From: Escherichia coli O157:H7
GTDB taxonomy: Bacteria > Pseudomonadota > Gammaproteobacteria > Enterobacterales > Enterobacteriaceae
Assembly (NCBI RefSeq): GCF_013167455.1
Contig: NZ_CP038328.1
Strand: one strand, 5' to 3'
DNA: 64,000 nt
The position numbers were made by a program. This document shows positions 43,901-59,500 of this stretch, one piece after another. Numbering within the stretch: the first letter of the stretch is position 1; each line of letters begins with the position of its first letter.

Positions 43901-46900
43901 CGCCCTCTTCATACGGGCCAAATGGCTTCGCGGGCAGAACGATATACGTGCCTTCAAACACTGCACCCGGCGTCTCGTCGCCAAAGATTTCGACCTGCAT
44001 CTGCACCCGTGCTTTTCGTCCGCGCGCCAGACGGTCGAGATCGCCGCTTAAGGCACCAAGGTCGGCTACCGCATGGGGTTTACCGCTAATCGGTTTGCTG
44101 TAGCGGATATGCGCATCCGCCAGAATAATCGTTCCGCCGAGGTGGCGTTCGCGCAGCATCAGCCAGATAAGCCCCCAACCGGTGAGCGTCGCCAGTGAGA
44201 ATAAACTCCCGGCAAACAGCGTATGGTGCGGATTCTGATTGCCGGTTTCTGGCATGGTAGTGATAAATTTTTGCCCGGTATATTGCTGAATGCGCACGCC
44301 CATTTTTTCACTAAGCGGGATATGTTCGTACCACGCCTGTTGCAGCTGCGCGCACCAGTCGCCGCGATGCAAAATATCATCCAGAGTGGCGACGGGCTTA
44401 ATCATCAAAAAATGGCGAATCGGCGTGGTGGTTGGCGTGGTGATTTCTCCCTGATTAACAAACCCCAGCTTGGCGAAAAACTCCACCGCGTCTTCACGGG
44501 CGCTACAGGTCACGCGCTTAACGCCTTCCTGACGCGCCACCGACTCCAGGGTCATCGCCATCAGCGTGCCTAACCCTTTGTCCTGCACGTCGGGATGAAC
44601 GGCCATAAAGCGAATGGACGCTTCATTGTCGGCATTAATATACAGTCGGCCTACCGCCACCAGATTACCCTGCTCGTCGACGACCATCTGGTGATGCGCC
44701 ATCGCATCCCACGCGTCGCGTTCCGAACCTTTTGGTTGATGCAGGGGCTTACGCAACATTTCCCAGCGAAACTGATAGTAACGCTCTAATTCTTCTTCTG
44801 TTTGTGGAACCCGAAGGTGATACATAGCGATACTCTCTCTTGTTTCCCGTGACAACCCTGGAAGCTGGCTCATACCTGCAACCAGAATGTCACGGGGCCA
44901 TCATTGACCAGCGATACCTGCATATCCGCAGCGAAGCGTCCTGTTTGCGTGTTCATCTCTTGCTGACGGCAGCGTTCGACGAAATAGTCATATAACGCCT
45001 CTGCGCGATCCGGTGATGCACCTTTGGAGAAACTTGGGCGCATCCCCCGTTCGGTATCTGCGGCGAGGGTAAACTGGGAAACCACCAGCACACTGCCGCC
45101 CGCCTGTTGCACGTTGAGATTCATCTTGCCTTCGGCATCGCTAAAGATGCGGTAGCCGAGCACACGCTCGCACAGACGGTTTGCTTTCTGTTCGTCGTCA
45201 TCCTTTTCGACACCCAATAACACCAAAAGTCCCGCACCAATTTCGCCCGTCACTTCTCCCTCCACGGTGACGCTGGCACGGGTTACGCGTTGAATTAATG
45301 CAATCATGGTTCGTCGTCTTCTTCTTGTTCAGCTGCTTGTTTTAGTTTGCGGTATTCCCCGAGAGTGACAGTAATTTCCGCGCCAAGCAAGACGATACAC
45401 CATGTCCAGTAGACCCAAACAAAGAGAATGGGGATCACCGCCAGCACACCGTAAATGAGCTGATATGACGGGAACATGGTGATATAAAGCGCGAAACCTT
45501 TCTTTCCTGCTTCGAACAGGAGTGCAGCAACAAACGCGCCGACAATCGCGTCGCGGTTAGGTACGCGGATGGTAGGAACAATGCTGTACAGCAACCAGAA
45601 GGAGATCCACGACAACAGCAACGGAAAAATACGCAGCACGTTGTCGATGACAGTATTGAGATCGCTCGCCCAGCGCAGGGAGAGCAAATAGGAACTGATC
45701 GCCAGACTGGCCCCTGCCAGCAGCGGCCCCAGCGTTAAAATCATCCAGTACACGGCAAACGAGTAAATTTTGGGTCGCGCTCGTTTACTGCGCCAGATGG
45801 TATTCAACGCGCTATCGATGGAGTACATCAACAATAACGCGGTGACGATCAGCCCGCACGCCCCAACGGCGGTCATCTTGTTGGAATTGGCAACAAATTG
45901 TTCGATATACCGCTGAATAACATCGCCAGTAGCAGGCAGAAAGTTGGCAAAAATAAAGTGACGTAACTGAATGCTGACGTCGGAAAACATGGGAAAAGCG
46001 GCGAAAAGCGCAAAAACAACGGCAACCAGCGGCACTAATGAGAGCAACGACACATAGGCAAGGTTACCTGCCAGGGTTGTCATATTGTCCTCATCAATGC
46101 GTTGCCAGAGTAGTTTTAGCCAGGCCCATAGTGGACGGGTACGGTGCCTGGCTTTGTCCTGAATGGTTTTTAGCATAACACCTTCGCGAAATAGTCCGGG
46201 ATGGTGGTTTTATCTTTCACCAGAATACTGGTAATGCCCAGCTGATTAGCTCCTTCTATATTATCGGCGTTATCGTCGAAAAAGACCGTATCGCTGGGTG
46301 AAAAACCTTCCGCCTGCAAAACATGCTGGTAAATTCGAGCTTCAGGTTTGCGCATCCCCAGATCTTGCGACAGATAGATATGGTCAGCAGCATCACGAAT
46401 TTCCGGGTATTCTTCCGGCCAGAAGGTGGTATGCAGGCGGTTAGTATTGGAAAGCACCACCACGCGATGCCCCTGCTCACGCAGTTTATGCATGATGGCG
46501 ATCACTTCCGGGCGCAGCGCAACAAACACCGCCTGCCAGCCGTGAGAGAACTGCTCGTAGCTTAGCGGTAGAGCCATCTCATGACACAGCGCCTCTGCGA
46601 ACGCTTCGTCGCTAATTTCCCCACGCTCATGCTGATGAAACGCCTCCCCCATATGAAAACTCTTCTTAAGCGTAGCCAGCGGAATACGCGTTAAATCGCT
46701 CCAGGTTCCCAGCACACGGTTAAAGTCGATATCGACAATCACATTACCTAAATCAAAGATATAGAGCATTTTTGCCTCCTTTCGCGCCACAAGAAATTAA
46801 CTGTAGCGGGAAAGGATGGGTTTGGCTATGTGGCAAGGTATGAAGCCAGGTCAACAGTCACAAAAATCTACGCGTCTTCCTGGGGAAGGATGATTTCAAT

Positions 46901-58900: not shown

Positions 58901-59500
58901 GATCAGGGCGAGGTTATGCTACGTGTGGGTTATAACTTCGATATGGGCGCGGGTATTATGTTAACCAATACCTACACCTTTCAGCGAGAAGATGAACTAA
59001 AACATGGATATAACGAAATCGAAGGTTGGTATCCGTTATTTAAACCAACCGATAAATTAACCATCCAGCCCGGTGGCTTAATTAATGATAAGAGTATCGG
59101 TTCGGGTGGTGCTGTTTATCTGGATGTTAACTACAAATTTACTCCGTGGTTTAACCTGACAGTGCGCAACCGTTTTAACCATAATAACTACAGCTCAACC
59201 GATTTAAACGGTGATCTGGATAATAATGACAGCTACGAGATTGGCAACTACTGGAACTTTATTATTACCGATAAGTTCTCATATACCTTTGAGCCGCATT
59301 ATTTTTATAACATTAATGATTTCAATAGCGGCAATGGCACGAAGCATCACTGGGAAATCACTAACACCTTCCGTTACCGCATTAACGAGCACTGGCTGCC
59401 CTATATTGAATTGCGTTGGTTAGATCGCAACGTGGAACCGTACCACCGCGAGCAAAACCAGATTCGTATCGGGACGAAGTATTTCTTCTGATGTGAAACT

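Follow-up and report, generated by a model that had tools for sequence, protein, structure and literature searches.

A stretch of 64,000 nucleotides from Escherichia coli O157:H7 (RefSeq assembly GCF_013167455.1, contig NZ_CP038328.1), referred to below as the window, was analysed at positions 46868-59491, which hold the known sulfo-Embden-Meyerhof-Parnas (sulfoglycolysis; sulfo-EMP) yih cluster of E. coli, located between yihX and yihN. The substrate of this pathway, sulfoquinovose (SQ), is a plant sulfo-sugar. Gene calls were compared with the reference annotations of the O157:H7 strains Sakai and EDL933, and K-12 MG1655 was used for protein alignment. The uninterrupted open reading frames (ORFs) listed for positions 44000-64000 coincide with annotated genes of Sakai and EDL933. 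The minus strand carries csqR (yihW; 46868-47653, 261 residues), the DeoR-family repressor gene of the cluster, which is annotated as csqR in EDL933 and matches the DeoR/GlpR family, and yihV (47687-48583, 298 residues), encoding the sulfofructose (SF) kinase with a match to the PfkB kinase family. A mechanical ORF list also gives a longer csqR frame of 269 residues with a GTG start at 47677. Across the divergent yihV/yihU control region (48584-48750) follow, on the plus strand, yihU (48751-49647, 298 residues) for the sulfolactaldehyde (SLA) reductase, which scores 603 bits, above the cutoff of 348, with the NCBIfam equivalog NF012005; yihT (49671-50549, 292 residues) for the sulfofructose-1-phosphate (SFP) aldolase, with a DeoC-type aldolase match; and yihS (50565-51806, 413 residues) for the SQ isomerase, an AGE family member that matches PDB 2RGK, 7AG4 and others and that here carries the substitution Glu363Lys (E363K). 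The mutarotase gene yihR (51873-52775, 300 residues) matches NCBIfam NF011719 (aldose-1-epimerase PRK15172) at 618 bits over positions 1-299 of 300. It is followed by a gene for a TauE/SafE (TSUP) permease of 291 residues (52836-53711), called tauE here, whose product has a full-length TauE/SafE domain, scored by Pfam PF01925 with 121 bits over residues 23-248 (cutoff 32.6). The plus-strand series is completed by yihQ (53819-55855, 678 residues), the GH31 sulfoquinovosidase gene (NCBIfam NF007746, PRK10426, 1244 bits), by the genes of the GPH-family transporters YihP (55901-57286, 461 residues; TIGR00792, 536 bits) and YihO (57329-58732, 467 residues; TIGR00792, 530 bits), the latter a putative importer of SQ or SQ-glycerol, and by ompL (58799-59491, 230 residues), which encodes a KdgM-family outer-membrane porin matching Pfam PF06178 over its full length at 286 bits.

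The 230-residue start of ompL at 58799 is backed by PGAP and by the KdgM domain. An upstream ATG gives an ORF of 252 residues from 58733, annotated as ompL in Sakai; this longer form owes its frame solely to the length of an A-run within the yihO-ompL spacer (58733-58798), seven bases here and eight in K-12. The centre of ompL (59100-59400) has 80% nucleotide identity to K-12, against 97-99% on both flanks, and this variable core probably corresponds to surface-exposed porin loops under diversifying selection or exchanged by recombination. A repeat search found a direct repeat of 292 nt with 73% identity (56895-57186 and 58305-58596), which reflects the paralogy of yihP and yihO, and beyond it short chance matches only.

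Over the cluster, the sole difference from Sakai and EDL933 is the base at 51651, which is also the single difference from reference O157:H7 when 22 kb are compared, and the entire window differs from Sakai at two positions only, 51651 and 17683. The second of these (C, T in Sakai) is a synonymous site in sodA (17503-18123, minus strand). A megablast search with the 12.6-kb interval found matches in 4038 of the 5426 complete E. coli genomes in RefSeq, with O157:H7 strains as the top matches, and about 1388 gave no match to this long form of the yih locus. Translation and global alignment of the ten named genes with their K-12 counterparts identified no internal stops and no indels, the yihR start aside. 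Protein identity to K-12 is 100% for CsqR, 98.3% for YihV, 99.0% for YihU, 99.3% for YihT, 99.3% for YihS, 93.8% for YihR, 97.6% for YihQ, 99.1% for YihP, 98.9% for YihO and 93.0% for OmpL, and all gene lengths equal those of K-12 except for yihR (300 residues, 308 in K-12). This gap concerns the annotated start only, and the length of 300 fits NCBIfam PRK15172, a model of 300 positions. The first-pass annotation had described ten genes from csqR to ompL, of expected lengths and free of frameshifts, and had called the cluster established biology; its genes and coordinates agree with the ORFs of Sakai and EDL933, its statement on frameshifts is confirmed by the alignments, and the cluster is indeed that of the K-12 prototype. 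The cluster itself, annotated as such in RefSeq, is known biology and adds nothing new. The ten genes were listed correctly, but the interval holds an eleventh, that of the TauE/SafE permease.

The residues defined as catalytic or sulfonate-binding by structural work (PMC8006165) were checked in each enzyme, and every one of them was present in the proteins encoded by the window. YihS, which has the AGE fold, keeps the catalytic His248 and His383 and the pocket Arg55-Gln362-Gln379, plus Glu251 and Glu320, and the PfkB-type SF kinase YihV keeps the catalytic Asp244 and the triad Lys27-Arg138-Asn109, plus Asp13 and Ser95. The class I SFP aldolase YihT retains the Schiff-base Lys193 and Arg253, together with Ser226, Ser227 and Ala26, the NADH-dependent SLA reductase YihU retains the pocket Asn174-Ser178-Arg123 and Lys171, and YihQ retains the sulfonate pocket Arg301-Trp304-Tyr508, Asp405 and Asp472. 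The two aspartates of YihQ we take to be the nucleophile and the acid/base residue, respectively, as reportedly assigned by Speciale et al. (2016). An SQ mutarotase, GPH transporters, a porin and the DeoR-type repressor CsqR are found at the same locus as these enzymes, so that each defining feature of a sulfo-EMP cluster that sequence can reveal is present.

A main physiological substrate other than SQ, with a lactose-linked role for the cluster as put forward by Kaznadzey et al., was also considered. The yih genes have been linked to a lactose-responsive pathway (PMC5816610) and the growth of K-12 on SQ has been described as low (PMC12608037), but in all five enzymes structures define a sulfonate pocket and kinetics show selectivity for sulfosugars (PMC8006165), all sulfonate-pocket residues are kept here, and SQ induces the long cassette of K-12 (PMC12608037). 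A lactose-linked role is consequently regarded as very improbable.

The steps of the pathway have been established for K-12 and Salmonella and are carried over to the window by near-identity of the proteins. SQ or its glycerol glycoside would be imported by the porin OmpL and the GPH transporters YihO and YihP, α-SQ would be freed by YihQ and turned into β-SQ by YihR, and YihS would isomerise SQ to sulfofructose (and sulforhamnose), which YihV would phosphorylate. Cleavage by YihT would yield dihydroxyacetone phosphate, used for growth, and sulfolactaldehyde, which YihU would reduce to 2,3-dihydroxypropane-1-sulfonate (DHPS) for export; the permease encoded between yihR and yihQ is the candidate for this last step. 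CsqR would repress the cluster until released by a sulfosugar. Binding of CsqR has been reported at yihU/V and yihV/W (PMC12608037). Since CsqR is identical to that of K-12 and the control spacers agree with K-12 at 33 of 33 bases (csqR-yihV) and 161 of 167 bases (yihV/yihU, a CsqR target in K-12), regulation looks conserved. Promoter and terminator consensus scans of positions 46700-59700 gave counts no higher than those of shuffled sequence (17 versus 15.5 and 23 versus 15.7), and therefore no operon structure was drawn from them. An Rfam scan of the whole window placed no RNA families inside the cluster.

K-12 does not have the tauE gene; Sakai lists it as hypothetical (ECs_4801) and EDL933 as a TauE/SafE family member. 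It is present in 1295 of the 5426 complete E. coli genomes, always on the chromosome and almost always in a single copy, and its carriers make up about one third of the E. coli genomes with the long cassette. The yihR-yihQ spacer of K-12 measures 198 bp, and about 154 bp of it, AT-rich, have no counterpart anywhere in the O157 interval. A search of this spacer for remnants of tauE found none; given the unrelated stretch, the difference amounts to a replacement and not to a clean deletion. The yihS-yihR spacer also differs in sequence (66 bp here, 113 bp in K-12), and yihR encodes the most divergent enzyme of the cluster relative to K-12. Neither of the intervals that flank yihR (51807-51872 and 52776-53818) is related to its K-12 equivalent, and the nucleotide sequence of yihR diverges by about 6%. 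Together, yihR with or without tauE looks like an old two-haplotype block.

Outside E. coli, a contig scan with one TauE protein returned three loci and missed Salmonella, and a protein search revealed a widespread orthologue group. E. whittamii has tauE in the same slot (98% protein identity) and is collinear with the window from the end of yihS to the start of yihQ, over 2.2 kb at 91% identity, unlike K-12. Widely sampled Salmonella enterica contigs have the gene in the same slot at 87% identity, and the Enterobacteriaceae isolate RIT691 has it between yihQ and yihP. Salmonella is polymorphic for tauE, some contigs having a yihR of 285 residues that directly abuts yihQ and others a yihR of 295 residues followed by tauE. 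The TauE-bearing cassette appears to be old in Escherichia and Salmonella, and the K-12 form to be derived.

In Leminorella grimontii, Hafnia and Kluyvera (contig positions 996-7894, 24-9888 and 68-9885, respectively), TauE orthologues with 81-84% identity are encoded at the end of a cluster of genes in one orientation, the other products of which are an ILVD/EDD dehydratase, an HpcH/HpaI aldolase, an aldose epimerase, an SMP-30 lactonase, a reductase of the β-hydroxyacid dehydrogenase type and an SDR dehydrogenase. Next to the cluster, Hafnia and Kluyvera have divergent genes, one for a transporter of the SSF family and one for a LacI regulator. This enzyme set is reportedly (Felux et al. 2015) that of the sulfo-Entner-Doudoroff (sulfo-ED) pathway of the Pseudomonas putida SQ1 type, and by their gene content the three clusters would resemble it. 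Since TauE orthologues end these sulfo-ED-like clusters, the TauE of the window is most likely an exporter of the C3-sulfonate end product DHPS, a role suggested by genomic association. TauE-type permeases have been proposed as exporters of sulfolactate or DHPS in other sulfoglycolysis clusters (PMC8873060, PMC7491151).

Alternatively, TauE could be a passenger outside sulfoglycolysis, for example an exporter of sulfite or another anion, with DHPS leaving through YihP. This would agree with the established growth on SQ and excretion of DHPS in K-12 (PMC9594981, PMC12890257), which proceed there without tauE, with the Salmonella clusters that likewise have no tauE, with the poor characterisation of TSUP proteins (PMC8873060) and with the finding that TauE matches no NCBIfam equivalog. 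However, at least six genera and two different pathway architectures have TauE orthologues of 81-87% identity encoded within sulfoglycolysis-type clusters or as their last gene, and in the window tauE is co-directional with its neighbours, separated from them by short spacers and preceded by its own AGGA ribosome-binding site. We therefore consider a passenger role unlikely and favour TauE as a DHPS exporter. A literature search on TauE as part of the yih cassettes of E. coli retrieved nothing relevant, and a 2025 study of yih cassette diversity describes long (10-gene) and short forms only, with no mention of TauE.

The remaining feature of the locus is the base at 51651, where the G of Sakai, EDL933 and K-12 is replaced by A, changing codon 363 of yihS from GAG to AAG. 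A 35-nt query that seeds only if the A allele is present matched 0 of the 5426 RefSeq complete genomes, the control 35-mer with the G allele matched 457, and a 201-nt query centred on 51651 found a perfect match in none of 4001 genomes. The exact E363K protein was nevertheless found on about 5-10 public contigs, including GCA_000335015.2, the Logan assembly of SRR575718 and a 5.6-Mb contig, and two public E363K loci are base-identical to the window. Because the exact protein recurs on public contigs, the allele is taken to be real. Gln362, the residue immediately before Glu363, is among the three ligands by which the isomerase binds the sulfonate (PMC8006165); for the E. coli enzyme that paper gives a kcat of 79 s-1, a KM of 1.9 mM and a kcat/KM of 4.2e4 M-1 s-1. 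An AlphaFold model (pLDDT, the predicted local distance difference test score, of 96) was used for secondary structure only, not for contacts, and shows residue 363 within an extended part of the long loop that joins helices 335-352 and 381-392 and also carries Trp375, Gln379 and His383.

As a whole, the locus is best explained as a canonical sulfo-EMP cassette in an 11-gene form (probability of approximately 0.85), and its pathway is judged somewhat more likely than not to be functional. Several points weigh against this explanation. Glu363 is invariant in all 111 full-length YihS homologues (57-99% identity, median 63%), lysine occupies the position in 0 of 210 homologues, and E363K is the one feature that could break the pathway. 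A literature search for growth or expression of O157:H7 or other enterohaemorrhagic E. coli on SQ found no report. With regard to export, the transport roles of YihO, YihP and TauE are themselves inferred, YihP is named as the DHPS exporter in a 2026 review (PMC12890257), and the reductase of the sulfo-ED-like clusters does not keep the pocket of YihU (K/K/H/V versus R/K/N/S), so that DHPS is not claimed as the product of those clusters.

A rival to a functional pathway is a cassette that is complete but has a crippled isomerase, in which E363K destabilises the loop of Gln362, Trp375, Gln379 and His383 or the hexamer, so that the sublineage uses SQ poorly or not at all and its pathway is in early decay. 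Position 363 is among the 62 of 413 alignment columns invariant over the 111 homologues, a set that includes His248, His383, Glu251 and Glu320, and it lies in a loop that forms the sulfonate pocket (PMC8006165). The other two YihS differences from K-12, E346D and M399L, approach the family consensus and E363K departs from it, the allele is very rare, and O55:H7 group-2 strains of the same lineage have a yihS frameshift (PMC9413875). Against a crippled isomerase, the side chain at 363 is expected to point away from the pocket faced by Gln362, as the extended conformation of the model implies, which would suggest a structural rather than a ligand role. In addition, 99 distant relatives (29-52% identity) have Glu in 64 cases, Gln in 19 and even Arg in two, with Thr and Val also occurring and Lys in none; because the wide family tolerates Gln here, the penalty for Lys363 in a profile hidden Markov model (HMM) is modest (1.35 nats). 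No published role for E363 was found, and PMC8006165 does not mention the residue. Fisher tests for a covarying partner of residue 363 among 211 homologues returned clade markers as the top columns, and these were rejected as phylogenetically confounded. Judged on this evidence, substantial impairment of YihS by E363K may occur, at odds that fall short of even, and a sublineage in which the pathway as a whole is decaying for this reason is likewise less likely than not. The still broader combination, in which the 11-gene form is ancestral, TauE is the real DHPS exporter, K-12 is derived by loss and this sublineage is losing the pathway through E363K, seems doubtful; if true, the annotation of YihP as the DHPS exporter and the pathway scheme itself would rest on a derived K-12 prototype.

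With the pathway read as functional, the step from genotype to growth remains a soft one. Growth on SQ was low but comparable in K-12 and in Nissle 1917, a strain that has no yihS, yihQ or yihR, and only the long cassette was induced by SQ (PMC12608037). Given this parity, the presence of the cassette supports a capacity for sulfo-EMP and does not predict a clear growth phenotype. The first-pass annotation had concluded from the intact genes that the strain should grow on SQ. The genes are intact, as it stated, but growth is not secured by this: intact ORFs are not the whole story, because yihS carries E363K at an invariant residue beside Gln362, and the link between genotype and phenotype is soft. 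For a typical O157:H7 strain the inference of growth on SQ is reasonable, and for this sequence it carries the caveat of E363K. Use of SQ in the manner of K-12 would be slightly favoured for the window.

The E. coli yih pathway is the reference model for the breakdown of SQ in the gut. O157:H7 inhabits cattle and leafy produce, and for it an intact pathway could plausibly be a niche factor. The locus offers two leads, a natural Glu363Lys variant of YihS beside the sulfonate pocket and TauE as a candidate DHPS exporter. TauE accompanies two kinds of sulfoglycolysis cluster, and a DHPS exporter has so far never been demonstrated; the permease has no copy in K-12 and was not found in the recent literature searched.

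Elsewhere in the window, the Sakai annotation gives rhaT (18408-19442), the gene of the L-rhamnose:proton symporter, as a pseudogene, with the other rha genes given as intact. Between yiiE and fabY (41659-43473), where K-12 has only an 850-bp gap, the hypothetical genes ECs_4813 and ECs_4812 form a small O157-specific island. Rfam matches outside the cluster comprise SECIS_3 in fdoG (35017-35075), two copies of naRNA4 (15346-15423 and 24268-24338), STnc370 upstream of typA/yihL (62811-62879) and ES036 (10300-10341).

Among known systems, the yih cluster of K-12 MG1655 (ompL-yihOPQRSTUV-csqR, b3875-b3884) is the prototype and shares with the window the site between yihX and yihN, the ten genes, their order and orientation, 93-100% protein identity, an identical CsqR and the same published active-site residues. 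However, K-12 has Glu363 in YihS and no tauE, whereas the window has Lys363 and tauE. The TauE-bearing clusters of Salmonella and E. whittamii have the same 11-gene order as the window, with TauE encoded between yihR and yihQ, and differ from it in the Glu363 of their YihS. The short cassette (yihTUVW) of Nissle 1917 and many B2 and extraintestinal pathogenic E. coli strains occupies the same locus and has homologous yihT, yihU, yihV and yihW, but does not contain yihS, yihR, yihQ, yihP, yihO or ompL, has the inverted orientation and shows no induction by SQ (PMC12608037); the window has the long form. The sulfo-ED clusters of the P. putida SQ1 type and the sulfo-EMP and sulfoglycolytic transaldolase (sulfo-TAL) clusters of Arthrobacter and Bacillus likewise have a TauE/TSUP permease gene beside those of their enzymes, the permease being the proposed exporter of the C3-sulfonate, although sulfo-ED-type chemistry (dehydrogenase, lactonase, dehydratase and aldolase) differs from that of the window. 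The clusters of Hafnia, Kluyvera and Leminorella, for which SQ is a putative substrate, share with the window the closest TauE outside Escherichia and Salmonella.

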